Counted from the stretch's first letter, positions 1 through 43,848 are shown. The stretch is 64,000 nt of DNA from Candidatus Berkelbacteria bacterium (GCA_029865605.1 JAOUGE010000001.1:19840-83839), one strand, 5' to 3'. The notes: generated from the letters alone by a model not told the origin. Program-made: numbers and translations.

Positions 1-11
1 AAGCGGAAATC

Positions 12-502: not shown

Positions 503-539
503 GGGGACAGCAACGTTGCTGTCCCCCTTTTGCGTTTTA
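503..539 (+). terminator. rho-independent terminator-like hairpin (gggggacagcaacgttgctgtccccc) followed by a T-rich tract
   Basis: Perfect 10-bp GC-rich stem plus ttttgcgtttt. It lies 90 nt after the stop at 411-413 and coincides with a sharp GC drop. Confidence 0.55.
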
Positions 540-636
540 TGATATTTGATGGAATAATTAAAGGCAAACGACTTGATTAGCAAGCTTTGTTTTGAGTAAG
601 TTAAGTATTTAGTTTTAGAAATGTAAGGGGGAAAAA

Positions 637-3210: not shown

Positions 3211-3225
3211 GCGAAAGGAGACAAG

Positions 3226-4023: not shown

Positions 4024-4228
4024 ATTTTGCTGGGCGAGAAGCGCTCGGATAGTGCCGAAAGCGTATTTTTGCTATAATTAATTCAGACAGGAGGTGGCGT
4101 ACTGAGAGATTCGGAAGGAGCCAGAATGTTGTTTGGTTTGGCGCGATATGCGTCGAGCTTTAGGGTACAGATAAAGTTAAAAGCTCTGCCTGCCGGCGGG
4201 CAGGGTAAAAAATAAGAGCGAAAAGGGC

Positions 4229-4894: not shown

Positions 4895-4909
4895 ACTTTA
4901 ATTTAAACT

Positions 4910-5641: not shown

Positions 5642-5670
5642 TTTTTAGTTTTACATTTTAAATTTTAACT

Positions 5671-29865: not shown

Positions 29866-31209
29866 CTAGATCTTGAAATCAGCGATTTTTTTAGATCCAT
29901 TTATTGAGAGATAGTTGTCAGAAACTACTAAGCTGATTTTTTTGATCGTGAATTTGATTGGATTTTTTTCGAGGGATTTGTTGGCTTCTTCTATTCTCGT
30001 TTTTAACAACGGCTCGATATTCTCTGGATCTTCGAAAAATCTGATGACATTAACAGGAAATCTATACCTGCCGTAGTACTTTAATTTACCTGAGCTAGTT
30101 TCTTTTTCTAGCTCTTTTGCCCATATGAGTAATTTATCCGATAGAGTTGCCTGAAAAGCGATCGATGGAACCGGATCTTTTACATCATATTTATTTGATG
30201 GATAGATGCCTGATATTTCAACTTGTTTATCAGTTATTTTTTTGGTGAAACCCCTTACGCAACTTTTAGTTGAAGCAATAAGTGCAGTATTTTCTTTTTC
30301 GAACCTATTGATTTCTTCTTTTGTTGGGGAAACCGCTTTTTTTACTTGTTCGAAGTCAATTAGTGAGAAATGGATAGTTGAGTCGGGATATACATAGATA
30401 GGCCTTTCTCTAAGGACAGTAGAAGAGCTTAACCAGTCGAGCATAGAGGCTGTTAAATTATTGATCCTACCTAAAGCGCCTTTATCTTGCAGCCCAATAA
30501 TTACTGATATCGTCAAATGAAGTTTGTCTGGATGTGTTTCTTGTATGAACACCCGATTTGGGATGGATTTTATTTTGCTTGCTAAGAACTTTTCTAGTTT
30601 ATTAGCATCATTGTATTTAATAAACCTTCTCTGAATTGCTTTTAGCTCGTTGGAAGCTACCGTCAGATGTCTGTAGAAAAATATTATTAAAGATATCCAA
30701 ATAACAAAAAAATAGATAAATCTATCTTGGTGGTAAGCTGCATGTGTTTGTACTAAATATACTATTAGTCCAAAAAATCCTATAGAGAGCGAAACAATTG
30801 CGAGGGATGATGTCATTGCAGATGTCGACCTTCGTCTTGAATAATCAAGGATGCCTTTAGTGTCAACGCCTTTGTTTATTTCTCTCCAAAGGCAGCCATG
30901 CCAGAACGTATCGTGCAGGTTTTGCCTTTTTGTTGGCTGACAAAAGTGTTCCCACCAAGCCTTCAACCGCTTATTACTATAGAGATCTCTTGATGCGTCA
31001 ATACTTTTGAAACCAAAGAATATTCTCCATACTGCAATTACGATCTGCGAGATAAATGGTCCAAATAAGATAGCTGCTGCTCCTAGTCCAACATATAGAT
31101 TATGATATTTTAGAACCTCTTCTTTATTGAGTACATACAATGAACCAATTACCATAAATGCCAGTATCGAAGCTGGTAAGCTAATTATTGGTATAGGTTC
31201 TTTTTCCAT
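29866..31209 (-). CDS. membrane-anchored protein with C-terminal 2H-phosphoesterase-like domain (two H-x-[TS]-x motifs)
   Basis: N-terminal 4-5 TM helices. C-terminal KLHLTISVI and STIHFSLIDF about 50 aa apart match the LigT/2H superfamily signature. No close family recognised. Confidence 0.4.
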   Translation of the reverse strand: MEKEPIPIISLPASILAFMVIGSLYVLNKEEVLKYHNLYVGLGAAAILFGPFISQIVIAVWRIFFGFKSIDASRDLYSNKRLKAWWEHFCQPTKRQNLHDTFWHGCLWREINKGVDTKGILDYSRRRSTSAMTSSLAIVSLSIGFFGLIVYLVQTHAAYHQDRFIYFFVIWISLIIFFYRHLTVASNELKAIQRRFIKYNDANKLEKFLASKIKSIPNRVFIQETHPDKLHLTISVIIGLQDKGALGRINNLTASMLDWLSSSTVLRERPIYVYPDSTIHFSLIDFEQVKKAVSPTKEEINRFEKENTALIASTKSCVRGFTKKITDKQVEISGIYPSNKYDVKDPVPSIAFQATLSDKLLIWAKELEKETSSGKLKYYGRYRFPVNVIRFFEDPENIEPLLKTRIEEANKSLEKNPIKFTIKKISLVVSDNYLSINGSKKIADFKI

Positions 31210-31255
31210 ACCTAAAAAGTGCCATCAATTCGAAAAATGTCAAATTTCTAGAGTG

Positions 31256-31304
31256 GACTAAAAAATAAAACCAAAAGGCCCCAGACCGGTTAGGGTTTGG
31301 GGCC
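31256..31304 (-). terminator. rho-independent terminator (ggcccca...tggggcc plus T-run in minus sense) downstream of the high-GC two-gene cassette
   Basis: 7-bp GC stem with a 14-nt loop, then ttttggttttatttttt on the minus strand. Confidence 0.55.
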
Positions 31305-31342
31305 ATGGGCATCCCTCCTTTGGGACAACAGGCGAACGGGTA

Positions 31343-31681
31343 CTACTTGGCGCGCCGGGGACGGCACTTGGCGCGTTGTGGCGGGTGTTTGTGGCGGGGC
31401 CACTTTACTGCTGGGTTGGCGGTGTCGAAAATGTCTGCGACGCTCGTGAAGAGTGCAAGAGCATTGCGCTCTTCGGTAATCAGACCAATTAGGTCCGATT
31501 TCGCAGGGCATTCCGCAAGCACTTTTACATGCTCTACTGCAATCCCTTTCAGGGCTTGTCCGATGGCCTCTGCCACTATCGATCGATGCTCAGGAGGAAT
31601 GTTTTTCAGCACTCCTCCCACGATCGTCTGCTCGCGCAGCCATTCCGCTTGGATCTCGCGGAACTCCGTCACGGATTTCAC
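31343..31681 (-). CDS. hypothetical protein (112 aa), second gene of a high-GC translationally coupled pair
   Basis: ATGA overlap with the upstream gene; basic C-terminus; about 58% GC flanked by AT-rich DNA; no family recognised. Confidence 0.4.
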   Translation of the reverse strand: MKSVTEFREIQAEWLREQTIVGGVLKNIPPEHRSIVAEAIGQALKGIAVEHVKVLAECPAKSDLIGLITEERNALALFTSVADIFDTANPAVKWPRHKHPPQRAKCRPRRAK

Positions 31682-32136
31682 CTCCTTCCTTTCCTGCGTT
31701 TCACGGCGGTCTTCTCCTTATCGCATTTCCCGCACGGGCACTTCCCTAGCCGCCAACCGTTTTCTGCCAGTAGGGCAGAGAAGCGCTCTGTTCCTAGATG
31801 GCGCTGGATACTTCGAAAGACGGTAGGGGGAAGATATCCGATCTGTTGTACATCGATATCTTCCAGGCAGGTCGTAGCGGCTTTCGCGACGAGCTCGACA
31901 TCTTGAGGGTCGGAAGGAGTATTGCTGTTCTCGTTTAGAGCGAGCACGGCGATTAGCCCCTTTAACGCCTCCCGCCGGGGTTCATTTCCCACAAGGGCTT
32001 CGAAGATCGCGCCGCAGATATCGGCGGCGAATACGTAACCGGTGATAGCCCTTCCTAACCCTTCTATCCAGGTGCATTTCACTGATTTTCCCCCTTCCGT
32101 TGTGTCAAACAGCGCCTCATATTGAGGTCGCGTCAT
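31678..32136 (-). CDS. hypothetical protein (~152 aa from internal ATG MTRPQYE), first gene of the high-GC pair; C-terminal CPCGKC plus basic tail
   Basis: The ORF-track N-terminal extension runs into AT-rich promoter DNA. The ATG at 32134-32136 is preferred. Confidence 0.35.
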   Translation of the reverse strand: MTRPQYEALFDTTEGGKSVKCTWIEGLGRAITGYVFAADICGAIFEALVGNEPRREALKGLIAVLALNENSNTPSDPQDVELVAKAATTCLEDIDVQQIGYLPPTVFRSIQRHLGTERFSALLAENGWRLGKCPCGKCDKEKTAVKRRKGRR

Positions 32137-32212
32137 TATGGCATAAGAGGCATAAAATGTCAAGTATAGCATACATATAAAAGCATATGATAAACCCGTA
32201 AAATGATAAATA

Positions 32213-32241
32213 TTGACAAATTGTCGTAAATAAGATACAAT
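32213..32241 (+). promoter_or_regulatory. consensus sigma70 promoter TTGACA -17 nt- TACAAT upstream of the first TrmB-family regulator
   Basis: Seen at 32213-32218 and 32236-32241; also contains the partial palindrome TTGACAAATTGTCG. Confidence 0.5.
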
Positions 32242-32261
32242 ATTAAGCAAATGAAAAGCAA

Positions 32262-33026
32262 ATGAAAAACAAAGAAAAATATATTGATTCTTTTATTAGC
32301 CTAGGCCTCAAAAAACAGGAGGCAGAGGTTTATTTTGCCCTTCTTCAGCTTGGACGATCTACAGTGGGAAAAATTAGCCGACTTTCAGGTGTACAGCGAA
32401 CTTTTATTTATGATATTTTGGACGATTTATCCATTAAAGGATTAGTTACTTCGATAGAATCGGAAGGAATTAAAAGATTTTCTCCTATTCCGATAGAACA
32501 GTTTAGAAAAAGACAACTTGCGAAATTGGAGAATTTTGAGGAAATTTTACCCGAATTGAAAGCTCTGATTAAGACGACTGGAGAACGTCCCAAAGTACAA
32601 TTTTTTGAAGGCATCGAAGGTTTTATTATTGCTCAAGACGACACTCTGAATATGCCTAGAGGCAGTGAGATTTGCGCTTACTATACAGGTGAAGGGCTCT
32701 ACGAGGAACATCCAGAAATTCCCACGCGCTATGTGGGGGAGAGAGTAAAAAGGAGAATAAGCGTCCGAGCTATTTCTACAGATACACCCGCTACTCTTAA
32801 ATGGACCCAGCAGGATAAAGAGCAACTGCGGGAGAGCCGGATTGTATCTGCGGACAAATTTCCCTTTGCTAACGAGATCAACATTTATGGTAATAAAATT
32901 AGTATCTTATCGCTTCAAGGAGAAATTTTGGCTGTTGTAATTGAATCAGAAAGCATTGCTAAGACCCAAAAGGCGATTTTTGAGCTGGCGTGGGAAGGCG
33001 CGGAAAAATACAGGACTAAAAAATAA
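32262..33026 (+). CDS. TrmB-family transcriptional regulator (N-terminal winged HTH plus C-terminal sensor-like domain)
   Basis: EAEVYFALLQLGRSTVGKISRLSGVQRTFIYDILDDLSIKGLV. Confidence 0.6.
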   Translation: MKNKEKYIDSFISLGLKKQEAEVYFALLQLGRSTVGKISRLSGVQRTFIYDILDDLSIKGLVTSIESEGIKRFSPIPIEQFRKRQLAKLENFEEILPELKALIKTTGERPKVQFFEGIEGFIIAQDDTLNMPRGSEICAYYTGEGLYEEHPEIPTRYVGERVKRRISVRAISTDTPATLKWTQQDKEQLRESRIVSADKFPFANEINIYGNKISILSLQGEILAVVIESESIAKTQKAIFELAWEGAEKYRTKK

Positions 33027-33047
33027 AAACAAAAGGGACCAGACCGG

Positions 33048-34760
33048 TTAAATCACACTTTTCTGATAGCAGGTTTCGCAGTACACTTTTTCGGTTCTAT
33101 CGGGGGCGTAGGTGGTTTCGAACTCGTTTTTGCATGGGCCGGAGTGGTCGTGGTCTGTCTCTTCGCACATACACTGCCTGTGCCACAGTTTGCGCGGGTT
33201 GCGCAGCGAGAATAGGCCTTTGAATCTTTCTTCCCAGTGTTTTTTCGGTATCGGGATAGAATTTGCCATATAAAAGGCTAATTCCTGCGGCATAATCTTA
33301 AAGGGTTTGCCCGTTGTCTCGCACTTTAATATTCCCTTGAGGAGCTTCTCTCTTTCCTCCTCGTTTTCAACATAATTTTTAATATCTTTCGGCTCATAAA
33401 AAGGCCCATCGTATTTGATGTCGTAGTCATTATCTTGCCATTTGCTGCCGAGCTTTTTTGCTTCGTCTTTCTCGAGCGGGTAATAATTCATTGCCACCGT
33501 TTCGTTGTAGCCGAAAGGGCTCATTGAAATCGGAAAAAATTCTCCCCACTCCCCACGCTCGATCATCTTCTCGATTATTTGAGGCACTAGCTTTTCGTAT
33601 CCTTCTTTTGTGTATTGCTTATTCAAGATGCAATATTCTTTATGGTTTCGAAGATCGATGCAGCCGAAACAGTTTGAGACGCTATTAAGACACTCAAAGG
33701 AATAATAAACGTTTTTAATGTCGAGACACGAAACTATAAAGGCACTATTATAATGCTCCTCTCCGCAAACCGATTGGTAGGTGAGCTCGTTAGTGGCAGA
33801 AATATTAATGTCTTGGCTGTCGCGCACTTTTATATCGTCGAAAACATACTTAGCATTTTCGGCGTCTTCTAAACTGAAAACGTACTTACAGTTTTTGCAA
33901 AATTTTATCTTATCGCCGAGCGAATTTTCGCAATTGTGCTGTTCGGTTGGTTTGACTGGTAAGGCAATCATCTTTTGCCTGATCTCGAGCAGTTTCCCCA
34001 AATTCCAATCTTTGAATTCTTTGACAAATTTTTCGAATTCTTCTTTTGTTTTCTGCTCGTTGAGGATGCAGTAACTCTTATTGCGCAGGTTTTTGCATCC
34101 AAAACAGTTGTTGCAGCCGATTAGGTTCTCGGAAAAATAGCACTCCGAGGTGTTGACGCAGTTGATTAAGAATTTTGAACGGTTTGATTTTCGGCAGTCG
34201 AGGCATCCATAGAGATACTCGCAGTCAATAACAAATAGGGAGTCAACGCAATCTTTCGCGCGATAAGCCCAATTGCAGTAATAACAGTTCTCGCAGTATC
34301 TTGAGGCAAAGCACATATAAGAGTTTTTGCTGTTGCCAAAATAGTTGCCGTATTCGGAGTTCTCGTTCTCTACCTGCACGGCGGCCATGCGAGGAACTTT
34401 TTTGAGAATTTCATTGACCTGTTCTAAAAACGGCCTTGTCGGGTTATAGTCCTGGCCGTAATCAGTCGCGTCCCATTTGTCAGACCACCAGCAATCATAG
34501 CAATAGACGTTATATTCCTTGTCCGGCGAGTAGATGCTGATAATGTCTTTCTGGCAGGAGTTGCATTTTCTCTTATAGAGCTTCTGCTCGTTTCTGAAGG
34601 CGAGCCGATTTTGCTCGCGGCAATGGGGACACAAATTGGGCGGGGGAATGTCAAAAGTTTTTCCACCAAAAACAGGGGAGATTTTTTTGTAAAAGGCCAG
34701 ATCAGTGTCTGTTATCTCGAATTTAGCGCTGCAAACTTTGCAGGTTTTTGTAATTGCCAT
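33048..34760 (-). CDS. cysteine-rich protein (570 aa, >50 Cys). N-terminal paired CxxC zinc-ribbon-like motifs, repeated C-x2-C-x2-C-x8-C modules, internally duplicated ~50-aa unit
   Basis: CKVC...CPHC, CNSC...CYDC, CENCYYCNWAYRAKDC, CNNCFGCKNLRNKSYC. Duplicated NCFGC..LRN...YCILN.Q.TKE.EK.V units. Confidence 0.6.
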   Translation of the reverse strand: MAITKTCKVCSAKFEITDTDLAFYKKISPVFGGKTFDIPPPNLCPHCREQNRLAFRNEQKLYKRKCNSCQKDIISIYSPDKEYNVYCYDCWWSDKWDATDYGQDYNPTRPFLEQVNEILKKVPRMAAVQVENENSEYGNYFGNSKNSYMCFASRYCENCYYCNWAYRAKDCVDSLFVIDCEYLYGCLDCRKSNRSKFLINCVNTSECYFSENLIGCNNCFGCKNLRNKSYCILNEQKTKEEFEKFVKEFKDWNLGKLLEIRQKMIALPVKPTEQHNCENSLGDKIKFCKNCKYVFSLEDAENAKYVFDDIKVRDSQDINISATNELTYQSVCGEEHYNSAFIVSCLDIKNVYYSFECLNSVSNCFGCIDLRNHKEYCILNKQYTKEGYEKLVPQIIEKMIERGEWGEFFPISMSPFGYNETVAMNYYPLEKDEAKKLGSKWQDNDYDIKYDGPFYEPKDIKNYVENEEEREKLLKGILKCETTGKPFKIMPQELAFYMANSIPIPKKHWEERFKGLFSLRNPRKLWHRQCMCEETDHDHSGPCKNEFETTYAPDRTEKVYCETCYQKSVI

Positions 34761-34853
34761 AATAATTTTGTTTAAATATTAATCCATATAATAACCTAAA
34801 TCAATCATATGTCAAAGTGTTGACACAGTTCGACAACAATATAGAATAGAAAC

Positions 34854-35591
34854 ATGGAAATTTTGAGCGAGAAAGAAAAGAAGGTTTTGAGCGGGTTATA
34901 TGAGCTCTCAAGAGCGACGGTTTGGGATTTAAGTAAAGAGGTTGGGATAAATCGAACTACGCTCTACCCTATTTTGGAGAAACTGCTCGAGCGGGGTTTA
35001 GTTTCGAAATTGTCGGTTGAGGGACACACGGTTTATGAGCCGATTTTATACAAAGATTTTAAGCGATGGATTAGCCGCGAGAGAAAAAAAGCAAAAGATG
35101 CGGCGAATGATCTTCTCAGGTGGGTTGATGCACAAGAAAAAAATAGCGCGCCGGCGCTTTTATCTGATTTTAAATATTTTGAGGGGCACGGCGGGGTTGA
35201 GGCGCTTTATGCTGATAGCTGGCGAGAAAATAAGGGCAAAATTATCTATTGCATAACAGATTATAAAGCGGCCCTCACGACGATGGGAGATTTTTTTAAC
35301 AACGAATATTTTCCTGATCGGGTTTCTCGCGGCGTGTGCGTCAAAAACCTAGTGCCGGAGTCGGCTCTCGGCCGCAGCGAGCTAAAACGCAAAAAAGAAC
35401 TTCTGCGCGAGGTGAAATTTATTGATATTTTTGAGGATTTGGGGATCGAAGTAAATATCTATGACGATAAGATCTCCATCGTTGCTTATGATAAAAAGTT
35501 GCCCTCGGGCGTTTTAATTAAAAATGCGAAGATAGCAGAGGCATTGAGGAAAATATTCGAGTATTTGTGGAGAGAGAATAAGCGGAGTTAA
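34854..35591 (+). CDS. TrmB-family transcriptional regulator, second paralog
   Basis: KKVLSGLYELSRATVWDLSKEVGINRTTLYPILEKLLERGLV. Confidence 0.6.
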   Translation: MEILSEKEKKVLSGLYELSRATVWDLSKEVGINRTTLYPILEKLLERGLVSKLSVEGHTVYEPILYKDFKRWISRERKKAKDAANDLLRWVDAQEKNSAPALLSDFKYFEGHGGVEALYADSWRENKGKIIYCITDYKAALTTMGDFFNNEYFPDRVSRGVCVKNLVPESALGRSELKRKKELLREVKFIDIFEDLGIEVNIYDDKISIVAYDKKLPSGVLIKNAKIAEALRKIFEYLWRENKRS

Positions 35592-35863
35592 TCTAGAACA
35601 ATTTTTATCGCTTTGCCTTCAATGATTGCTCTGGAAATTTTACGGTAGGCAGAATGTAAGATGCGCTGAAAAGTGCTTTGGGAAATTTTCATTTTTTTTG
35701 CCGCTTCGATCTGATCCAGATTTTCAATGTTTTTCAACCTTATTGCTTCAGCTTCGTCGGCTGAAATTTCAATAATATCCAAAAAACGCAAAGGGATACC
35801 TTGCGGCTTAAAAAAATAAGCATTGTGCTTAAATCTGATAAATCGGCATTTTCTTGGTCTCAT
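35588..35863 (-). CDS. DUF134/UPF0251-family predicted DNA-binding protein
   Basis: MRPRKCRFI...FKPQGIP...EISADEAEAIRLKNIENLDQIEAAKKMKISQSTFQRILHSAYRKISRAI matches the family consensus. Confidence 0.7.
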   Translation of the reverse strand: MRPRKCRFIRFKHNAYFFKPQGIPLRFLDIIEISADEAEAIRLKNIENLDQIEAAKKMKISQSTFQRILHSAYRKISRAIIEGKAIKIVLD

Positions 35864-35931
35864 TTTTTGTTATAATCTTAGTGCGGGGTGCCCCGACTTC
35901 CGACGTAACAGTCGGAATGTCGGGGCGCCTT

Positions 35932-36183
35932 TTAGTTGCTTTTCAGCTCGTCAACTCTCTCGCGGACAGCCTTGAGATCCGCCTCAAGATCTTTTGCTTC
36001 ATCTTTAAGGCTTTCTAGCTCCTCGGATCGAGTCAAGTACATCCTTGGGCTATTTCCCGCTTGGCCCCAAATCCAGGGACAGGAGCGACCAAAGCCACGC
36101 CTGAATCCCGCGCCGCAGGGGCCGAGGCCTCGGCCAGTCCCCGCGCCCATTCCCATAGGGCCAGTTCCATCAAATCTTGGCAT
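35932..36183 (-). CDS. DUF5320-family small protein (from internal ATG: MPRFDGTGPMGMGAGTGRGLGPCGAG... with C-terminal coiled coil)
   Basis: MPRxDGTGPMGMG signature. The ORF-track N-terminal extension is AT-rich junk. Typical DUF134 neighbour. Confidence 0.6.
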   Translation of the reverse strand: MPRFDGTGPMGMGAGTGRGLGPCGAGFRRGFGRSCPWIWGQAGNSPRMYLTRSEELESLKDEAKDLEADLKAVRERVDELKSN

Positions 36184-36330
36184 TTCGTTCACCCCCGATC
36201 TTAATTTAGCTTGTATTATGAATATATATGCAAAATGGGGATTTGTCAAGAGGGTACTTCTCGCAGACGTTAGAAATGACATATTGGAGAAATTGTTTGA
36301 GAAATTGCTCAAACCTGTTAGGATTACCTT

Positions 36331-36906
36331 GTGCAACAGGCTTTTATTATTTTAAGTAGTGTTTCGATCTTGGCGGCTTATTTTATTTATGAGTGGTCAA
36401 TTGTAACAGGGAGAACGCGCCCTCATCGGACGACTAGATTTGTTATTTTTATCGTTGCGGCGCTTGGCGCAACGTCGCTTTTTGCCGGACAGGATCGGGT
36501 GGCAGTTTGGCTTTTGGGAATTTGCGCCATCCAATCGCTAGTTGTCTTTCTCATGTCGTTTAAATGGGGGATGGGCGGTTGGGCCAAGACGGATATTTTG
36601 TGTCTGGCGATTGCTCTTTTGGGGATTATTGTATGGCAGCTGACGGACAATCCCGCCCTTGGCCTTTATGCTGCGATCACGGCTGATTTTGCCGGGATGG
36701 TACCGGCGTTGATTAAGACTTATCGCCTGCCTCACACCGAGTATTGGCTTTCTTACATCTTTGATGTTGTAGCGGCTGGATTTACGCTTCTGGCGATCCA
36801 AAAGTGGGAGCTGCAGGGTTTTTCTTACCCGCTTTATATCCTAGTTATTAATATTGTGATGTTGATTTTGATTTTTCGTCCCAAACTTCTTCCCAAACCC
36901 GCCTGA
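36331..36906 (+). CDS. small polytopic membrane protein (6 TM), unknown transporter-like
   Basis: Hydropathy; Trp-rich helices. Confidence 0.4.
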   Translation: MQQAFIILSSVSILAAYFIYEWSIVTGRTRPHRTTRFVIFIVAALGATSLFAGQDRVAVWLLGICAIQSLVVFLMSFKWGMGGWAKTDILCLAIALLGIIVWQLTDNPALGLYAAITADFAGMVPALIKTYRLPHTEYWLSYIFDVVAAGFTLLAIQKWELQGFSYPLYILVINIVMLILIFRPKLLPKPA

Positions 36907-36918
36907 ACCTGATATTAT

Positions 36919-37626
36919 TTGCCTGTCGTAGAACCCTACAGGAAGGAGGCCGGCGAGATGCGGCCTTACATCAACGACTTGCTTTGCTCGCTGAAAGGTA
37001 GCTGGGTGGGTAAGATCGTTGCGTGCGTGTTGTATCCGCTGATGTATTGGCCGTTATTCGTCGGCCAGTATGTCAATGCGCTGATCTGTGAGCGTTTGGT
37101 GAACGCGTGGCCGCGGATCGGCGGGGTTGGGCTGTACAAGACCGCAGCAGAGTTGACGCGCGAGTTGGTCGCAAATGGACGTTTCACGACAGTCGTTCTC
37201 GGCGGCAACGAGGCCGAGCAGAAGCAGTTCCTAGCTGAATACCGGCCGGAATGGCTCACGAGTCTTGATGTATCGGATGGGACGTACCCCCAGGTGAGAG
37301 GGGTCGTCGATTACGCCGAGCAGTATGGCTTGCCTGCGATCTGTATTATCACGCACGAATCGCTTCTAACCAGAGCGGCTCTGACCGTGGTGAAACAGCT
37401 CAAAGAACGCGAGATGCGTCTGCCGGTATACTGCGAGGCGTACCTCGATCTATCTCGGCTTGAGCTGAAGTGGTATGAGGTAACGCTGGCCTCGGCGAAT
37501 GAAGCCTTGAGCCTCTTGCGCTATCAGAGGAGAGGCCACGTTGCCACGCATCGAGAAACGCTGGAGTATCTCCGGGACGTCTCCTGGGAGGAACGGCCGG
37601 GAGGAGTCCTGTTTGTCATCGTGTAG
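36919..37626 (+). CDS. hypothetical protein in a high-GC islet; weak resemblance to DUF218/YdcF-like
   Basis: TTVVLGGNEAEQ ... ICIITHESLLTRAAL. About 60% GC. Followed by a GC-rich terminator hairpin at 37642-37675. Confidence 0.3.
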   Translation: MPVVEPYRKEAGEMRPYINDLLCSLKGSWVGKIVACVLYPLMYWPLFVGQYVNALICERLVNAWPRIGGVGLYKTAAELTRELVANGRFTTVVLGGNEAEQKQFLAEYRPEWLTSLDVSDGTYPQVRGVVDYAEQYGLPAICIITHESLLTRAALTVVKQLKEREMRLPVYCEAYLDLSRLELKWYEVTLASANEALSLLRYQRRGHVATHRETLEYLRDVSWEERPGGVLFVIV

Positions 37627-37687
37627 AGTCAGCGATACCCACGGGCGGGAAAGGGGGCCGCCCGATGTATTTATAAAAAGGATTGAA

Positions 37688-38779
37688 ATGTCATTGTCAA
37701 TCGGTATTGTTGGGCTTCCGAACGTTGGAAAATCAACGCTTTTTAATGCACTTTTGAAGTCACCTCTGGCGCGGGTGGCGAATTTTGCTTTTACAACGGT
37801 TGAACCGAATATCGGGGTGGTCGAGGTGCCGGATGAGCGGGTAGAAAAATTGGCCGAAGTGGAAGGAAGCGCTAAAGTCACACCGGCGACAGTGAGGTTT
37901 GTTGACATTGCGGGATTAATTGCCGGAGCGCATAGAGGCGAGGGATTGGGGAACAAGTTTTTGGCCCATATCCGTGAGGTTGATGCGATCGCGATGGTGG
38001 TGAGGACTTTTGAGCATAAGGATGTTGCTCATGTTTCGGGCAAGATCTCGCCTAAAGATGATATCGAGACGATTTTGACCGAGCTCGTGTTGGCCGATAT
38101 GGAAACTTTGCAAAAGAGACTAGGCGTGGCCGAAAAAGATGCTAAATCGGGTGACAAGACCGCTCGAAAACAAGCTGAAATTTACAAAAGAATTGCTGCA
38201 ATGTTTGACAAGAATAAACCGGCGATTGAGGCAAAGCTTGATGACAAGGAGAGAGAATTGATCGGCGAGTCCGGTTTTCTAACTTTAAAACCATTTTTAT
38301 ATGTTTTTAACGTCGGCGAGGAGGGGGCAACACAGGCGCCGGAGGATTTAGTGGAGGAGTATGAGCTTGAGGTAAAATCAGAGCAGGTGGTGGTGATTTC
38401 GGCGAAAATCGAGTCGGAGCTCTCTGACTTGTGCGAGGGGGACCGCTGCGAATATTTAAAAGAATTGGGGCTTGATGAGCCGTCTTTAAACAAACTAATT
38501 CGCTCTGCCTATAAAACCCTCGGGCTAGTTTCATTTTTCGTCGTCAATCAAAATGAGGCGCGAGCCGAAACGGTAAGAGATGGTGCCACGACACCCGTGG
38601 CGGCGGGCAAGATTCACAGCGATTTTGAGGACAAATTTATTAAAGCGGAAGTGACGCGAGCGGATGATTTTATAAAATATGGCGGCTGGAAAGGGGCACA
38701 TGAAGCTGGCCGAACTCGTTTTGAGGGCAAGGACTCTGTGGTACAAGAAGGGGACGTGATGTTTTTCCACCATAGGTAG
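37688..38779 (+). CDS. ychF: ribosome-binding ATPase YchF (Obg-family GTPase)
   Basis: MSLSIGIVGLPNVGKSTLFNAL at the internal ATG 37688; TGS-like C-terminus. Confidence 0.85.
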   Translation: MSLSIGIVGLPNVGKSTLFNALLKSPLARVANFAFTTVEPNIGVVEVPDERVEKLAEVEGSAKVTPATVRFVDIAGLIAGAHRGEGLGNKFLAHIREVDAIAMVVRTFEHKDVAHVSGKISPKDDIETILTELVLADMETLQKRLGVAEKDAKSGDKTARKQAEIYKRIAAMFDKNKPAIEAKLDDKERELIGESGFLTLKPFLYVFNVGEEGATQAPEDLVEEYELEVKSEQVVVISAKIESELSDLCEGDRCEYLKELGLDEPSLNKLIRSAYKTLGLVSFFVVNQNEARAETVRDGATTPVAAGKIHSDFEDKFIKAEVTRADDFIKYGGWKGAHEAGRTRFEGKDSVVQEGDVMFFHHR

Positions 38780-38824
38780 CTTATAAATTGGTTACGGGCG
38801 CCCCCTGTGGGGCGCCCGCGTGAG

Positions 38825-39178
38825 CTATCGCTGTCTTCGGGAAGGAGCATCGTTAGGGGCACCTTTGTAGCGGTGGGCCCGGACGAACTCCCGAAACTGG
38901 ACAGGGCGGAAGTGGCCGGTGAAGGCCACAACCGCTTCGACGGCGGCGAGGGCGAGGCACCAAGCCGCGACGATCCACATCCGGCCACCTTCTGTTGCCA
39001 TCGCGATGCCCAGTGGCACCGAGACGAGGAGGCCGATTGTCGCGAGCCAGGCGAGGTTTACTCGCCAGCACTCTAGCTGGTAGCCGACCGTGTTAACGTG
39101 CATGTCGCTCATCCTCTGCAGTGATACCCTGGTCTTGCCGGGGTCCGTCTGTAAAAGAACAACGGTTAAATATACCAT
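38825..39178 (-). CDS. small hypothetical membrane protein in a 65% GC island
   Basis: Two hydrophobic helices; start uncertain; weak call. Confidence 0.25.
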   Translation of the reverse strand: MVYLTVVLLQTDPGKTRVSLQRMSDMHVNTVGYQLECWRVNLAWLATIGLLVSVPLGIAMATEGGRMWIVAAWCLALAAVEAVVAFTGHFRPVQFREFVRAHRYKGAPNDAPSRRQR

Positions 39179-39299
39179 ATCTGAACCTGATTGTCAATGC
39201 GTTGACACCTGTTTTTTCAGGCAGTATGATTAAACTATGAGTCTAGGAGTATGGTTGACTGCTCCTAGGCCAGCTCCTTTCTGGAAGGGGGATGGTCGT

Positions 39300-39890
39300 A
39301 TGCGCACGATGTGTCGCGGACCTTCGTTGATGCTGGTGGCGTTGCTCGTTCTGGCGTTGGCAGCGTTCGCAGTGGGAGCGGCTGGCTGCTCGACCGCGAA
39401 GGCCGACAAGATGACGGCGACAGCGGCTCCAACGATCTTCACGGCAACAGTGGGCATCGACGACGACATCGGTGGGCAGTCCATCTTCACGCAGACGGTA
39501 GCCGCGCGCGGCCCAACCCGAGACGCGGCCGCGGCGCAGACCCTCACCGGCATGATCGCCCAGAAGACGGCCACCACTGACCGCGTGGCGAACGTGGCGA
39601 TCAAGACGATGGACCCGAAGATCGGTGACATCAGTGTCGGGCAGTACCGCCTCCTGGCGGCGGCGTACAACGGTAGCATCGTGGACAACAAAGTGGCGAC
39701 GGCCATGCGCGGCAGCCCAGGCATCGTGGCTTCCCCGACGGCAACCGCCAACGACATCACCGGCAACCGCACGAACGCGGACACGGTGGCACAGACGCTC
39801 TCTCCCCAAGGAGGTCGGCAGGTCCACAAAGTCCTTGTGGCCAACTACCTCGGCACCGGGGGCGCCGGTTGCCAGAAGACCCGCTGCTAA
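39300..39890 (+). CDS. lipoprotein (signal peptide with AAGC lipobox), Ala/Thr-rich, in a 65% GC island
   Basis: ATG at 39300 with RBS ggaaggggga. MRTMCRGPSLMLVALLVLALAAFAVGAAGCS. Terminator hairpin at 39977-40030. Confidence 0.4.
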   Translation: MRTMCRGPSLMLVALLVLALAAFAVGAAGCSTAKADKMTATAAPTIFTATVGIDDDIGGQSIFTQTVAARGPTRDAAAAQTLTGMIAQKTATTDRVANVAIKTMDPKIGDISVGQYRLLAAAYNGSIVDNKVATAMRGSPGIVASPTATANDITGNRTNADTVAQTLSPQGGRQVHKVLVANYLGTGGAGCQKTRC

Positions 39891-39976
39891 CGACGAAGCG
39901 GCGGGGGGGCAACGGCCCCCAAGACATCCTGGTCGAGTTGGGCCCCTCTGGCCAGCTCGGCCTCGCACTCATACCC

Positions 39977-40030
39977 GGGCGCGGACCCCTTTGTGGGACC
40001 GCGCCCGTTCGCGTTTAATTAGCTTTAATT
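39977..40030 (+). terminator. GC-rich hairpin (gggcgcggaccc/gggaccgcgccc) plus T-rich tract
   Basis: Seen in sequence; marks the 3' end of the high-GC island. Confidence 0.5.
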
Positions 40031-40083
40031 TTGTGCTAAAATTAAAAAAGAGAAATCCTAATTTGAGTTGAAGGAGGTTTTAG

Positions 40084-40869
40084 GTGATTGTTACTCCCCA
40101 AGCTGGACAGGGTGCTCCGCCAGGGCCCGAAAGCGCTGTCTCACCAGCTCCTGCTGAAGCACCTCCTGCCCCTGCCGTGCCTCCCGTTCCGGAGGCAATA
40201 CCTCCGGCTCCACCGGTTGTGGGGCAAGCTCCACCGGTGGCTGAAGTGGCGCCTGACCTGTCAGCTATTCTAGAAGCTCCTCAAGTGACTGCTCCGGCGG
40301 CAGCGCCGGCGGGCGAAGCGGCTCCTCCACCTCCTGTTGCTCCGCCGCCGACAGAAGAATTGATTGAAAACCCTTCGCAGCCTGGAGCTCTTGAGGGGTT
40401 AGAAACGGCAGTTGCTGCTCCTCCCATTCCGGCTGATCAAGGCAATATCGGTGAAACCGCGGCGGCTGATGTTGTGGCAGCCGCAGAGCCAACTGCTCCC
40501 TCAATTCCTACACCCGATCAAGCTCCGGTGATTGACGCAGCGGGGGTCGCTCCGGCAGCTCAAACCGAAACCGCTCCATCAGCCCCGGCTGGCCTCTCGG
40601 AAATGCCTGCAACGACACCTCCCCCCGAAGCCGTTGCTCCCCCCGTATCTGAACCTGCCGCTCCAGTCGCGCCAGAACCGATTGTTACACCCCCCGCGTC
40701 TGAACCCGTTATAGGTTCAATTAGTCCAGAAGTAGCCAGACCCGTTGAGCAATTGACTGATGAGGAATTGCAGGGACAAGCTGTAGGTGGTCATTTAGCG
40801 CTTGATGAACTGGCGAGGAGAAGAGCTGAAAGGGGCGCAGAACAAAATATAACCCGGGAGGCGGCATAA
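40084..40869 (+). CDS. proline/alanine-rich low-complexity protein (261 aa)
   Basis: GTG start with RBS gaaggagg; PAPAEAPPAPAVPPVP composition. Confidence 0.4.
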   Translation: MIVTPQAGQGAPPGPESAVSPAPAEAPPAPAVPPVPEAIPPAPPVVGQAPPVAEVAPDLSAILEAPQVTAPAAAPAGEAAPPPPVAPPPTEELIENPSQPGALEGLETAVAAPPIPADQGNIGETAAADVVAAAEPTAPSIPTPDQAPVIDAAGVAPAAQTETAPSAPAGLSEMPATTPPPEAVAPPVSEPAAPVAPEPIVTPPASEPVIGSISPEVARPVEQLTDEELQGQAVGGHLALDELARRRAERGAEQNITREAA

Positions 40870-41519
40870 TGGCATCACTTGACGTTTTATATCTAATCTT
40901 GGGGGTTTGCGTTGTTGTTATCACCGTAACGATTGTTTGGCTTGCCAGCGAAACAAGACAGCTAGTGCGCTCACTTAAACGCTCGGCTCAGGATACCGAA
41001 GTTGTAACCAAGGAAATAAAGGAGAAGGTTCTGCTGGTCGGCGAGGCGCTTGATCGGGCTGGAACGGCTGCTACGACCGTCATTGGTCTGATTGAGGATG
41101 CGATTGAGCAAATCGAAGAAAAGCGCGACCAGATTGTCGGCTCAATTGGTCTTCTGACCGGTGCTGGAAAGTACGTAAAACAGCGTCGCGAAGGGGCAAA
41201 AAAGGAAAAAGCAGAAGCAGGAAAAGAGAAAAAAGAAGTTCCGAGAGCGGAGGTTAAAGAGAAGCCTAAGGAATTGGAGAAGAAAGAAATTAAAAACGAA
41301 GAAGTAGAAACCCCCGAGCCGATTAGCGAGAAGAAGAATATGGGTTCATTTGTCCTTGGTCAGAAAAAAGTGGAAACATCCCCGCCTATGCAAGCTCGTG
41401 ATGATGAAGAGTCAAAGAAAACCAAGACAGAGAATAAGCCGGACGCATCTCGACTCTCGCCTCGGTTCGAGTCGAAGCGGGTCGGTAAAGACGAGGCAGA
41501 AGAGTTAGATAAGAAATAA
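40869..41519 (+). CDS. N-terminally anchored coiled-coil protein with Lys/Glu-rich tail
   Basis: TM helix LYLILGVCVVVITVTIVWLA; the C-terminus carries one copy of a 30-nt repeat also present at 439-468. Confidence 0.45.
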   Translation: MASLDVLYLILGVCVVVITVTIVWLASETRQLVRSLKRSAQDTEVVTKEIKEKVLLVGEALDRAGTAATTVIGLIEDAIEQIEEKRDQIVGSIGLLTGAGKYVKQRREGAKKEKAEAGKEKKEVPRAEVKEKPKELEKKEIKNEEVETPEPISEKKNMGSFVLGQKKVETSPPMQARDDEESKKTKTENKPDASRLSPRFESKRVGKDEAEELDKK

Positions 41520-41526
41520 ACCAACC

Positions 41527-42306
41527 ATGAAGCGAAAACTTAGCGCAAGGAGATGGCTGGTTTTTTTGTTGGTTTTACTCGCTCTTTTGGCGGTAGCATT
41601 TTTTATTACGAAATATTATCTCTCACAAGATGCGGTGACCGAGAGAGAGAAGGCAAAGCTGCCGACTCTGTCGGCAGGTCAGTCTCCGGTCTCTAGCGTC
41701 CAGTCTCCAACCGCCAACCCATCTCCATCAATAAATTCCATACCAGAGGAATTGAATTTAGATGTACCGTTTACTCCACAGGCACCGCACGCTAATTGGG
41801 ATTATACCCACGAGGAGGCCTGCGAGGAGGCGGCAGTTTTGATGGCCGGGAGATATTTCAGGGGGCAAGGAATTTCTGGGGCCGATGACGCGGAAAAGGG
41901 ATTGCAGGAAATTATCGGCTGGGAAAAAGAGAACTTGGGATTTTTCGAGTCGACTACAGCCGAAGAAACAGTCAGGGTTATAAAAGGAATTTATGGCTTG
42001 AATGCGCAGGTCATTGAAAATCCGACAGTTGGGCAGACGAAGGTGGCATTGGCGCAGGGAAAATTGGTATTGAGTCCATCAGCCGGCCGGGAAATCGGCA
42101 ACCCATTTTATAAAAGTCCGGGGCCCCTATATCATATACTTTTAATCAAGGGCTATACGAAGGACAAATTTATCACCAACGATGCTGGGACGAAAAGAGG
42201 AGAGAACTATCCTTATGTTTTTAAAACGGTGCTTGACGCCAACCACGACTGGAATGGTGGGAATGTGGGAGACGGTCGCAAACTGATGATTGTTGTTTCG
42301 CGCTAG
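41527..42306 (+). CDS. N-terminally anchored papain-like peptidase, C39-like (Peptidase_C39_2/BtrH-like) domain
   Basis: YTHEEACEEAAVLMAGRYF (Cys) and PLYHILLIKGYT (His) spaced as in C39-like peptidases. Confidence 0.5.
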   Translation: MKRKLSARRWLVFLLVLLALLAVAFFITKYYLSQDAVTEREKAKLPTLSAGQSPVSSVQSPTANPSPSINSIPEELNLDVPFTPQAPHANWDYTHEEACEEAAVLMAGRYFRGQGISGADDAEKGLQEIIGWEKENLGFFESTTAEETVRVIKGIYGLNAQVIENPTVGQTKVALAQGKLVLSPSAGREIGNPFYKSPGPLYHILLIKGYTKDKFITNDAGTKRGENYPYVFKTVLDANHDWNGGNVGDGRKLMIVVSR

Positions 42307-42437
42307 CCTACTCAAATCCGAGACGGTTCGCACTTAGTACAGATTGACAAAGAGGGCTCTTTATGGTTCAATTTAGGCATCTCGTTGCCACGGATGAAGC
42401 ATAAACTACACTACCCGTAAGGGAGGGAGGGACTGCC

Positions 42438-42647
42438 GTGGGAGAAAGCTGTATGTGCAGCGTCGCAGAAGGCCCTACTGGGGTTGTCATTAGGTCGCTT
42501 GCCAGACAGGGTCGCCAGCAGCACTGCAAGACCGGAGACCGGAACGGCCACGAGCCCGAGCACTTTGGCAACCCCTACTCGGCGAAGGAGTGTGCCGAGG
42601 TAGGTTGCCCGAACAGGGCAGAGTGTGGAGGTAACGGCTCCGGATAA
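42438..42647 (+). CDS. small cysteine-rich ORF (69 aa) with GTG start and a strong RBS; coding status uncertain
   Basis: ggagggagg 7 nt upstream of GTG. TTGACA at 42344-42349 is promoter-like. Six Cys; C-terminal CGGNGSG. Confidence 0.25.
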   Translation: MGESCMCSVAEGPTGVVIRSLARQGRQQHCKTGDRNGHEPEHFGNPYSAKECAEVGCPNRAECGGNGSG

Positions 42648-42823
42648 CGCACCAACGACAAGCTAACACGGGCAGCGAGATGCCAGGGGGACGCTCCCGC
42701 TCTGGGAGGGTAGCGGGTGCATTGTCCCGTCTTACCTATCGAGGGCGCCCCCCAACTTTTTGTAGAATCCCCCGCGAGGTGGATTTTTTTGTCCGCTTTT
42801 GGTAGGATTTCTTCGGTTAGCAA

Positions 42824-42855
42824 GGCCCTGTCGTCTAGTGGTTAGGACGCGAGGT
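42824..42855 (+). pseudogene. tRNA 5'-half fragment (acceptor, D-arm and 5' anticodon stem), 23 nt upstream of tRNA-Glu
   Basis: GGCCCTGTCGTCTAGTGGTTAGGACGCGAGGT aligns with tRNA-Glu positions 1-32 at 24 of 32 identities. No 3' half. Confidence 0.5.
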
Positions 42856-42878
42856 ACATTATAATAAATTCAATTGGG

Positions 42879-42953
42879 GGTCCCATCGTCTAGTGGTCAG
42901 GACGCAAGGTTCTCATCCTTGTAACGGGAGTTCGACTCTCCCTGGGATCACCA
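42879..42953 (+). tRNA. tRNA-Glu (anticodon CTC), CCA encoded
   Basis: Manual fold: acceptor GGTCCCA/TGGGATC, D-stem GTCT/GGAC, anticodon stem CAAGG/CCTTG with loop TTCTCAT, T-arm GGGAG-TTCGACT-CTCCC. Confidence 0.85.
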
Positions 42954-43087
42954 TAGTGGATTTATCAAAAGAATTAGCTTTTTGTTTTGAACACTTTGAT
43001 ATTGACTTTTTAAGATAAAAAGGGAAAATACAAGGCGATTTTCGCACCTCGATAGAGAGCAAGACTACTAGGGAGGAGGATGGAGCG

Positions 43088-43738
43088 ATGTTGCAGCTCA
43101 TAGCTGTGTTTGTCGTAGCAGCTCTGGCTGGACCCTCGCTATCCGTTCCCCGCTTGCCAGAGACATCCGGCAAGCCCTGCGCATGCACTAGTAGCGCTCC
43201 CCTTGCCGCGACTGCGGCGCGAATCCCAGCTATTTCTCCGGGCAAAGAACCTCAACTGGTTCTCGCCCGACCTGCCGCAGAATTGGCAGAACCCCTGCCG
43301 CTCTCGCTCCAGGCGCTTGTGGAGAGGATTGAGGGAGATCCGAATGCGCCGGAGTGGAAGAGGACTGTCACCCAGCGGATTCGCGCTCGCCGGATAGGAC
43401 GCTTTGACGCGTATCTAACGGCGTACTGCACGGACTCCTCCGCCGACTCGACGGGTGGAGGGCCGTGCGCCGCTTGGGACGGTATCCCACTTCGCTGGGG
43501 GCACGCCGCCAGCGACTGGCGGCATGTCCCAAAAGGCACAGTCCTCTTCGTCGGGCCGCCCGTTGACGCGATCTTGATCGTTGTCGACAACGGCCCGGGC
43601 GTTAAGGGCCCAGGCCGGCTTGATATATGCACGACAGACGGAAGCGTTTACAGGCTGCTGAGCCGGCAGATTAGTGCTGGTCAGCCCGCGGCCTGTTGGC
43701 GCCTTGGACGAAAAACGACATCAGCGGAAGCGCGCTAG
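43088..43738 (+). CDS. secreted 3D-domain protein (MltA/RlpA-like double-psi beta-barrel), ~62% GC
   Basis: YLTAYCTDSSADSTGGGPCAAWDGIPLRWGHAASDWRHVPKGTVLFVGP ... GRLDICT matches the 3D domain pattern. Confidence 0.5.
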   Translation: MLQLIAVFVVAALAGPSLSVPRLPETSGKPCACTSSAPLAATAARIPAISPGKEPQLVLARPAAELAEPLPLSLQALVERIEGDPNAPEWKRTVTQRIRARRIGRFDAYLTAYCTDSSADSTGGGPCAAWDGIPLRWGHAASDWRHVPKGTVLFVGPPVDAILIVVDNGPGVKGPGRLDICTTDGSVYRLLSRQISAGQPAACWRLGRKTTSAEAR

Positions 43739-43848
43739 CGCTTCCGCGATCGAGGTGTGATGACCTGTGGCCGCCCTTGATTTCGCCCACGGGCGGAATC
43801 GGGGCGGCCACTATGACGTTAAATTGCTTTGATTTATAACCTCAAGAC

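Follow-up and report, generated by a model that had tools for sequence, protein, structure and literature searches.

A Patescibacteria-specific family of cysteine-rich finger proteins with a duplicated architecture, linked in some lineages to one subclade of VirD4/TraG-type ATPases

The gene at positions 33048..34760 (minus strand) of a 64,000-nucleotide stretch of DNA from a Candidatus Berkelbacteria bacterium (GCA_029865605.1 JAOUGE010000001.1:19840-83839; this whole stretch is called the window below) encodes a 570-residue member of a large protein family that is specific to Patescibacteria, is about 570 residues long and has no curated name. Sequence comparison indicates that the protein is a rigid, pseudo-symmetric scaffold, in which two finger pairs, A-B and A'-B', are placed around duplicated repeats and a middle domain. 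Cysteine covariation points to real Zn(Cys)4 sites in the fingers, of which B and A' appear to have been gained and lost as units across the family, while the approximately 23 remaining cysteines would form the inward register of the core of a tight, solenoid-like coil of 12 residues and not discrete metal sites. In certain lineages the family genes adjoin a VirD4/TraG-type ATPase, and it is tentatively proposed that the family consists of diversified client or adaptor binding proteins that work with this ATPase.

The coding sequence has an ATG start and a stop codon at 33048-33050, and its product matches OEV37_00285 exactly, which is annotated as a hypothetical protein in a metagenome-assembled genome (MAG) of Candidatus Berkelbacteria. 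A preliminary description of the gene, made from the sequence alone, gave the open reading frame (ORF), its strand, its start and its length of 570 aa correctly. The observation behind that description is real but was only partly right in its details, and its interpretation is partly supported. The protein contains 37 cysteines (6.5%), where more than 50 had been counted, and eight histidines; other family members contain 28-45 cysteines with a median of 36. The four N-terminal CxxC pairs are present (C7/C10, C44/C47, C66/C69, and C87/C90), and so is the C-terminal cluster, which consists of C530, C532, H537, H539, C543, C561, and C564. There is no signal peptide or transmembrane helix, as had been stated, and the highest 19-residue Kyte-Doolittle mean is 1.02. 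The description of a cytoplasmic, cysteine-rich protein that is uncharacterised, carries zinc-ribbon/treble-clef modules and is internally duplicated still holds. The protein is not an orphan, however; it belongs to a large family with a conserved gene neighbourhood.

The domains are arranged in the order A (1-58), B (59-100), a linker, S1 (129-236), H1, S2 (269-380), H2, an acidic middle domain (404-475), A' (476-526), and B' (527-570). An AlphaFold2 model based on a 120-sequence alignment has a predicted local distance difference test score (pLDDT) of 87.9 and a predicted template modelling score (pTM) of 0.89, with pLDDT above 90 in the termini and the middle domain. Module A (34587..34760, minus strand, as are all of the modules) is a predicted treble-clef/zinc-ribbon finger that features Cys7, Cys10, Cys44, and Cys47 and leads into a conserved Arg-ladder helix with R48, R52, R56, and N57; its pLDDT is 94-96. 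Module B (34461..34586) is a CxxC-x17-CxxC finger with C66, C69, C87, and C90, a facultative zinc site and weak matches to PF23477 and TIGR04272 at residues 60-92. The helical linker (residues 101-128, 34377..34460) features invariant F111 and Q114. The repeat module S1 (34053..34376) is made of 12-residue coils and contains 14 of the cysteines; the model shows short beta bridges every ~6 residues here, with a pLDDT of 62-84. The helical hairpin H1 (residues 237-268, 33957..34052), with modelled helices at 239-249 and 254-265, is the most variable segment of the protein and has a mean column entropy of 2.55 bits. It is followed by the repeat module S2 (33621..33956), an ancient duplicate of S1, which ends in NCFGC...YCILNKQY with C367 and C377 being 93-97% conserved. 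Helix H2 and the acidic middle domain (residues 381-475, 33336..33620) feature the motif GEWGEFFP..SPFGYNET, in which W405 and G406 are invariant and Y418, N419, and E420 are nearly so; this segment has a net charge of about -8 and a pLDDT of 94-97, and the middle domain has no match in Pfam, PDB or BFVD. Module A' (33183..33335) is a degenerate duplicate of A (HHalign 96%, E=3e-9) that retains only C480 as a ligand, is strongly basic (+6) and has an Arg ladder of R512, R520, and R523. The protein ends with module B' (33051..33182), a finger of the CxxC-x17-CxxC type with invariant C530, C543, C561, and C564, which HHalign relates to B at 96%.

Column entropy is highest in S1/H1/S2 (2.1-2.55 bits) and is 1.2-1.7 bits elsewhere, with the lowest values in B', H2, A, and A' (1.2-1.45 bits). 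The family has a mean net charge of -11.8; S1, S2, and the middle domain are negative and A' is basic at about +5.5. The family alignment shows no conserved constellation of His, Ser or Cys outside the fingers that would suggest catalysis.

Both halves of this arrangement are related by duplication. HHalign matches residues 129-249 to 274-395 (99.9%, E=3e-33) and residues 6-93 to 479-567 (98.9%, E=1e-17). The duplication that had been noticed is thus real, but at ~50 residues its size was greatly underestimated, and the two modules quoted as near-identical (197-246 and 341-392) share 27 of 52 amino acids (52%) and 58% of their DNA sequence. The only DNA repeat within the gene is 44 nt long at 77% identity. 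Because the duplication is large and is found family-wide by HHalign, it is ancient and no artefact of assembly. An artefact, in which the ORF would be spurious or the repeat a product of mis-assembly, is an explanation that has practically no probability left: thousands of full-length homologues are found across independent assemblies, and the internal duplicates, besides being common to the whole family, have diverged to the extent given above, so that this explanation is already refuted.

The zinc sites were assessed from an alignment of 452 sequences by determining which cysteine columns are gained or lost together. Site A (C7, C10, C44, and C47) is 92-99% conserved and site B' (C530, C543, C561, and C564) is 99-100% conserved. 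In site B, C69, C87, and C90 co-vary with a phi of 0.99 and are present in 32% of the 452 members, with 143 complete tetrads vs. 11.9 expected from the column frequencies. For site A', the phi values among C483, C508, and C511 are 0.70-0.96, and these cysteines are present in ~20% of the members, with 89 complete tetrads vs. 6.3 expected. Complete tetrads of B and A' are therefore enriched 12-14x. This all-or-none behaviour of the Cys ligands is expected of true Zn(Cys)4 sites. The two ribbons described at the N-terminus accordingly exist as CxxC pairs in the window protein, but the second one, B, is facultative in the family. The window protein carries T483, H508, and E511 at the A' ligand positions, which indicates that the A' zinc site has been lost in this copy and leaves A, B, and B' as its expected Zn(Cys)4 sites, three in all. 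In addition, a 10-residue insert in B' (532-541) is found in ~37% of the 452 members, and C532, H537, and H539 are conserved within it; these residues make up a possible extra site of the Cys/His2 type.

The fingers resemble known small zinc-binding domains. PF23477 (zf_Tbcl_2) matches 19 of 48 members at E<=0.1, the best at E=4.8e-6, and PF13451 (zf_Tbcl) matches 12 of 48, the best at E=1.1e-5; one relative has a precomputed PF13451 annotation, while the window protein itself has no match to this family. The window protein is also below the curated cut-offs of PF23477 (13.8 vs. 27 bits) and TIGR04272 (12.1 vs. 36 bits). B and B' share the CxxC-x17-CxxC spacing with these domains and A consists of two CxxC knuckles followed by a helix. 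Module B has the two-knuckle feature of zf_Tbcl_2/TIGR04272 with the spacing C66xxC69-x17-C87xxC90. In module B', C543 is located 17 residues ahead of C561xxC564 and the first knuckle is split by the 10-residue insert; the ~60% of the family that lack the insert have the canonical CxxC-x17-CxxC spacing. A CxxC-x17-CxxC module in small proteins of M. mazei (Methanosarcina) has been found to bind zinc by inductively coupled plasma mass spectrometry (PMC12704099). PF23477, PF13451, and TIGR04272 differ from the present family in being small stand-alone domains of ~37-50 aa, whereas the fingers here account for less than one third of 570 aa, occur as two duplicated pairs, and have two of their four sites facultative across the family. 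The unit-wise gain and loss of ligands (B in 32% and A' in 20% of members), with the fold kept with or without the four cysteines, is also reminiscent of the C+/C- dimorphism that Makarova et al. reportedly described in 2001 for zinc-ribbon ribosomal proteins. Those proteins are unrelated, however, and in the present family the dimorphism occurs between paralogs and between the halves of one protein.

The cysteines of the central part follow a register. Every third residue in S1 (132-233) and S2 (288-359) is small or aliphatic (C, S, T, A, V, I, L, or G) in 88-89% of cases and is often preceded by N or D. Cysteine accounts for 39% of these register residues in S1 and 26% in S2, and for 0-1% in the other two registers. 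For S1, Cys, N/D, and column entropy give lag-12 autocorrelations of 0.76, 0.53, and 0.67, respectively. Individual central Cys positions are 10-90% conserved among the 452 homologues, with Ser, Val, Ile, and Leu as replacements, and the presence of Cys is correlated weakly and positively at i/i+3 and i/i+12 and negatively at i/i+6 (phi -0.3 to -0.46). Runs of CxxCxxC or CxxCxxCxxC are found at the column-frequency expectation in S1 (z ~-0.5) and are depleted in S2 (z=-3.0 to -3.7). Since the runs are not enriched and the register carries nearly all of the cysteines, the CxxCxxC motifs are probably by-products of the Cys-rich inward register and not selected ferredoxin-like motifs.

These results change the reading of the three C-x2-C-x2-C-x8-C units that had been reported. 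Two of them are exact (156-171 and 216-231), but the third (364-377) reads CFGC-x9-C and lacks the first Cys. The dedicated metal-cluster role that such units imply is not supported, in view of the variable conservation of the central cysteines, of their placement on every third residue and of run counts that are at or below expectation. Ferredoxin-like clusters are not supported: for a ferredoxin-type [4Fe-4S] site, CxxCxxCxxxC together with a Fer4 domain was looked for, and no Fer4-type hidden Markov model (HMM) of Pfam or NCBIfam matched the window protein or 48 relatives. The sole well-conserved CxxCxxC is 216-222 (80-93%), and Val, Ile, and Ser substitutions occur there as well. The best-conserved central cysteines, 216, 219, 222, 367, and 377, are found all together in just 60-65% of the members and are substituted by Ser, Val, and Ile. 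A single metal site could be formed by these conserved cysteines at the ends of S1 and S2.

The predicted 12-residue coil can be compared with known beta-helices. The Tenebrio molitor antifreeze protein (TmAFP, PDB 1EZG) is a secreted, Cys-rich beta-helix with 12-residue coils of the consensus TCTxSxxCxxAx, which is pinned by i/i+6 disulfides. The present family shares with it the 12-residue coil, the small inward residue at every third position and the many cysteines. There is no significant homology between the two (profile E=7.5), TmAFP is absent from the Foldseek list, and the family lacks a signal peptide and the TCT ice-binding face. The i/i+6 cysteines are anti-correlated, which argues against a disulfide pattern of the TmAFP type. 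The top Foldseek matches in PDB are the left-handed beta-helix acyltransferases LpxA, VioB, and PerB, which suggests that the centre of the model is coil-like. These matches are not significant (E=0.5-8, TM-score <=0.21), the coil of the acyltransferases has 18 residues and not 12, and neither a hexapeptide Pfam match nor acyltransferase residues were found in the window protein.

The whole protein has no Pfam, NCBIfam, PADLOC, PDB or BFVD match, and the resources that were queried hold no name, model or structural analogue for it. Pfam, NCBIfam, and PHROGs returned only sub-threshold finger matches and phrog_15341, a family of unknown function that matches residues 146-371 at E=3e-5. The statement that no family was recognisable therefore holds for residues ~100-475, where nothing curated was found, but the terminal modules weakly match PF23477, PF13451, and TIGR04272; no curated family of Pfam, NCBIfam, PHROGs, PDB or PADLOC spans the whole protein. 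As a lead to phages, phrog_15341 was dropped, as tblastn of the central module gave no match in 50,697 phage genomes and IMG/VR contained one fragment only, at a contig end; the family is essentially absent from viral contigs. Searches of PDB by sequence, with the single protein and with a 120-sequence profile, gave nothing below E=0.06, the value of a LIM-domain match over B'. Foldseek comparison with 350,542 PDB chains gave no match better than E=0.5, and a tandem zinc finger and the switch domain of Hsp33 were listed besides the beta-helix acyltransferases. In BFVD there was nothing at E<=0.001, and phage 'zinc-ribbon domain' proteins match the fingers only (E=0.055). The family protein has no match in PADLOC-DB, where the ATPase that adjoins family genes at other loci matches just generic mad8/HerA P-loop models and the TrmB proteins just the winged helix-turn-helix parts of CasR/Csa3. 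No description of the family was found in searchable papers.

The family is very large and is among the larger unnamed ones of Patescibacteria. A word-indexed search gave at least 7,233 significant clusters at 90% identity, nearly all of which are 550-600 aa long, are covered over their full length at 43-52% identity and are unnamed or 'hypothetical'. Exhaustive HMMER searching of 1.84 billion representatives yielded 3,726 clusters at 50% identity, and E<=1e-30 was reached by 1,471 of these. A single peptide pattern had 578 matches in GTDB species genomes. The best 78 of these 578 loci are all from Patescibacteria and include Berkelbacteria, Peribacteria/Peregrinibacteria, Gracilibacteria, Kerfeldbacteria, WS2, and some MAGs labelled Saccharibacteria. 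The counts of neighbours, arrays and family ORFs given below refer to these best 78 loci, each of ~13 kb.

Family genes often occur as arrays. The 78 loci contain 267 family ORFs, 1-8 per ~13 kb and mostly co-directional, and some genomes have up to six full-length copies (eight ORFs that match the family profile) within 13 kb. Identity within an array is 29-56% (median 41.5%), and for 183 of 194 family genes the best match lies in another genome. Paralogs that are ~40% identical and mostly closer to genes of other genomes are ancient, and recent tandem duplication or gene conversion was rejected on the same grounds; judged by these identities, the paralogs are old and maintained and neither recently amplified nor homogenised. 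The MAG that contains the window gene has at least seven paralogs, however, none other was found inside the 64-kb window, and the ORF of the same length at 12196-13908 was rejected as a paralog, being a CHAP/glucosaminidase hydrolase. Another contig of this MAG (k141_1197078, locus L080, 9001-14149) carries three paralogs of 575, 576, and 565 aa with 4-nt stop/start overlaps, which implies that the three genes would be translationally coupled. This array is flanked by a YkuD L,D-transpeptidase gene and a gene for a helix-turn-helix (HTH)-HSP20 fusion, and Nramp and ferritin/rubrerythrin genes are located a few kb away. At three other loci (L020, L046, and L065) translation with genetic code 11 breaks the family genes up into series of short ORFs. 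In these genomes UGA is probably a sense codon, as in code 25 of Gracilibacteria, and the apparent fragmentation would then be a result of using the wrong code.

Only two neighbours recur across the loci, a TrmB-like regulator and a P-loop ATPase of ~750 aa that features the domains T4SS-DNA_transf, TrwB_AAD_bind, and TraG-D_C (PF02534, PF10412, and PF12696). The family loci contain 18 ATPase genes with a mean column identity of 64%, and 15 of the 18 are adjacent to and co-directional with the family genes. In Peribacteria and Gracilibacteria the usual layout is TrmB(<-), family(->) x n, ATPase(->), and in the Berkelbacteria-like loci it is ATPase(->), family(->) x n. A reciprocal metagenome scan with the ATPase gave ten full-length matches at >=40% identity, nine of which adjoin family genes, with four in a row at one locus. 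The link between the ATPase and the family is strong and reciprocal, yet it is specific to one ATPase subclade, and the ATPase as a universal partner was rejected because its distant homologues lack family neighbours. The other neighbours are housekeeping genes (ClpB/C, LigA, and aminoacyl-tRNA synthetases), which indicates that the arrays are chromosomal. In the Berkelbacteria-like loci (the 3684-5951 region of L001, L003, L008, and 2719-3075 of L023) two small genes recur between the ATPase or ClpB/C and the array; they encode a DUF5674 protein (~115 aa) and an unnamed protein of ~110 aa, and are found at five loci each.

TrmB-like genes are the second recurrent neighbour. All 28 such genes at the family loci are adjacent to a family gene and 24 of them are divergent from it. 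The window gene has one on either side. The first (34854..35591, plus strand; PF01978, 2.8e-10) is divergent from the family gene, which is the canonical orientation at loci of other genomes, and the second (32262..33026, plus strand; PF01978, 3.2e-16) is convergent with the 3' end of the family gene and is 28% identical to the first; homologues of the second regulator adjoin arrays in 28 of the 78 loci. The 93-bp gap between the family gene and the right-hand TrmB gene contains two back-to-back sigma70-like promoters (34788-34847), each with 11 of 12 consensus matches. The promoter-like site of the family gene (34788..34815, minus strand) consists of TTGACA, a 16-nt spacer, and TATTAT and is known from consensus matching alone. 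A perfect palindrome, TGTCAA-N4-TTGACA, is formed by the two divergent -35 boxes at 34810..34825 (no strand assigned) and is a candidate operator for the TrmB-like regulator. The plus-strand -10 box ends 6 nt ahead of the TrmB start codon, and the TrmB mRNA may thus be nearly leaderless. Beside the right-hand TrmB gene are a DUF134 gene (35588-35863, minus strand; predicted DNA-binding, 7e-19) and a DUF5320 gene (35932-36336, minus strand; 1e-13), both of which were rejected as conserved partners, occurring at none of the 78 loci. To the left of the TrmB gene at 32262..33026 lies a GC-rich island of ~900 bp (31200-32100; 52-56% GC vs. 35-38% in the flanks) with overlapping ORFs on both strands. 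This island has no Pfam match and no credible Rfam match, the only Rfam hits of the window being two tRNAs. It may represent foreign DNA, or else an RNA or a gene that escaped recognition.

The arrays adjoin one ATPase subclade in the lineages that bear the family, and it is on this basis that client or adaptor proteins of the VirD4/TraG-type ATPase are proposed; the proposal is a possible reading that is put forward with some reserve. In such a system the conserved termini and the middle domain, including the Arg-ladder helices after A and A', would provide a constant surface for docking or for binding a polyanion, and the variable S1-H1-S2 surface would set the binding specificity of each paralog. 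The divergent TrmB-like regulator would probably control the arrays, in the window through the TGTCAA-N4-TTGACA palindrome that spans both -35 boxes. The proteins might then be cargo of the ATPase that is exported through the apparatus of Patescibacteria's type IV secretion system (T4SS), or they might be specificity factors that pass a bound ligand, possibly nucleic acid, to the ATPase. The export version, in which the 'orphan' VirD4-type ATPases would find their missing clients in zinc-stapled solenoid effectors or DNA-escort proteins, would have Gracilibacteria, Peribacteria, and Berkelbacteria deliver proteins to hosts through a relaxase-less T4SS, with the diversity of paralogs tracking host targets; this more specific version is unlikely as it stands.

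The family can be compared with the sets of effectors or cargo of type IV coupling proteins (T4CPs), such as the Xanthomonas X-Tfe effectors, which reportedly share a conserved VirD4-interacting domain. The likeness consists of divergent proteins with a conserved part, the link that exists at family level to a VirD4/TraG ATPase and the presence of T4SS genes in the same genome. The differences are that the whole protein is homologous across paralogs and not a C-terminal tag alone, that the ATPase has no transmembrane anchor, that the family has no immunity-gene partners and that the linkage is limited to certain clades.

Several observations weigh against the client or adaptor proposal. Only one of ~45 more distant homologues of the ATPase adjoins family genes. 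These distant ATPases are found beside a Sigma70_r4/HARE-HTH protein (46 of 80), TopA (23), DprA (12), and FtsQ (11), none of which are neighbours in the family loci, and the ATPase does not need the family and may serve DNA transactions and not export. No ATPase is located beside the window copy or beside the three-gene array of the same MAG, and 60 of the 78 family loci have none within +-6 kb. The ATPase lacks the N-terminal transmembrane helices of classical coupling proteins, and the co-location with the family could result from an insertion hot spot. On the side of the family protein, the C-terminus is a structured, conserved zinc finger and not the disordered tail that is typical of many T4SS signals, and zinc-stapled folds would be awkward substrates for secretion. 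The repeats S1 and S2, which would carry specificity, have the lowest model confidence (pLDDT 62-84), and their solenoid geometry is derived from sequence periodicity and DSSP only.

The neighbourhood of the distant ATPases is of some interest in itself. In lineages without the family (loci L091-L161) the soluble ATPase is usually preceded by a 351-aa Sigma70_r4+HARE-HTH protein, and there are sometimes two tandem copies of the ATPase. This neighbourhood, which may itself be undescribed, hints at a DNA-transaction role for the 'T4CPs' of Patescibacteria.

The preferred reading has to be weighed against proteins that act without the ATPase. One such explanation, which is doubtful, is that family members are autonomous nucleic-acid binders in which Arg-rich finger modules grip DNA or RNA, the solenoid serves as a spacer or recognition surface and no ATPase is obligatory; they would act in regulation, as accessory factors of the nucleoid or of DNA uptake, or in the sensing of foreign nucleic acid. 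Binding of nucleic acids is common among treble-clef and zinc-ribbon modules, conserved Arg ladders follow both A (R48, R52, and R56) and A' (R512, R520, R523, and R528), and A' carries a charge of +5.5. The loci are also consistent with it, as the ATPase family at large sits by TopA and DprA, HTH regulators are adjacent to the family genes and most family loci have no ATPase nearby. The protein as a whole is acidic, however, with negative S1, S2, and middle domain, no known DNA- or RNA-binding domain model of Pfam or NCBIfam was matched, and the finger pairs have their best remote matches in the tandem fingers of LIM and Stc1, whose role is in contacts between proteins. PADLOC finds no defence component, and a housekeeping DNA-binding factor would not usually come as two to eight divergent paralogs per array.

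A metalloprotein or redox protein, which is close to the role implied by the preliminary description, with Fe-S clusters, with multiple Zn, Cu or Fe ions or with thiols that act as a buffer or switch, and with a role in electron transfer, metal storage or the sensing of oxidative stress, is improbable. Its appeal comes from the 37 cysteines, the two CxxCxxC motifs and the CxC...HxH insert, from the 80-97% conservation of C216, C219, C222, C367, and C377, which could converge on one site, and from a whole coil of four inward cysteines (213/216/219/222) in many members; a weak Foldseek match to the Hsp33 redox-switch domain (E=8.9) and the array of the same MAG near ferritin/rubrerythrin and Nramp genes point the same way. 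The behaviour of the cysteines described above speaks against it: the central ones are variably conserved, with Ser, Val, Ile, and Leu taking their place, the best-conserved five co-occur in under two thirds of the members, and CxxCxxC(xxC) runs are at or below expectation where real sites exceed it 12-14x. Models for Fer4, radical-SAM, and metallothionein gave no match, and divergence to ~40% identity with a kept architecture is unlike a simple buffer. More improbable still are host-interaction proteins that are exported independently of the ATPase, with solenoids that are displayed or released to bind host surfaces and that disulfide ladders stabilise extracellularly, as in the antifreeze beta-helices of insects. 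The 12-residue Cys-rich coil has the same inward register as the Tenebrio antifreeze helix, there is a faint profile match to PDB 1EZG, and in the reduced genomes of symbionts host-interaction proteins typically come in large, diversified sets of paralogs. The lack of a signal peptide or transmembrane segment and the negative i/i+6 correlation, which is the opposite of the cross-core disulfides of TmAFP, stand against this explanation, and the presence of invariant zinc fingers suggests that the protein folds in a reducing cytoplasm.

The rest of the window contains T4SS-type parts, which are scattered and lie at a distance from the family gene. They consist of a VirB4/TraC-like ATPase (5671-7788, plus strand; P-loop_TraG, 1.6e-26), a TrbL/VirB6-like protein of 972 aa (49184-52102, minus strand) and the 570-aa CHAP+glucosaminidase wall hydrolase (12196-13908, plus strand), whose role would be VirB1-like. 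A PilB-type T2SSE ATPase is encoded at 15450-16994 (minus strand). A survey of T4SSs in Patescibacteria found about two VirD4-type genes per genome, mostly far from virB4 and almost none with a relaxase, and left their role open (PMC12102498). The window also encodes a 1,429-aa protein (20265-24554, plus strand) whose only recognisable parts are C-terminal CarboxypepD_reg-like domains and which is probably a large surface protein. The GC content in 2-kb windows is very uneven and ranges from 41 to 58% (e.g., 1-4000 and 36000-44000 vs. 30000-36000), which suggests a mosaic of native and acquired segments.

The family is of structural interest for its predicted cytoplasmic 12-residue coil with a cysteine-lined core and for the unit-wise gain and loss of its zinc sites, and it illustrates that covariation can separate real metal sites from incidental CxxC motifs using sequence data alone. 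Patescibacteria, the Candidate Phyla Radiation (CPR), make up a large share of bacterial diversity and are ultra-small epibionts with genomes of ~1 Mb, more than 1% of which would be taken up by an array of the largest size found here. To our knowledge, the proteins that underlie this epibiont lifestyle are hardly characterised at all. The family provides concrete candidate partners for the VirD4-type ATPases of Patescibacteria, whose role was left open by the T4SS survey (PMC12102498), and with these candidates the question becomes testable.

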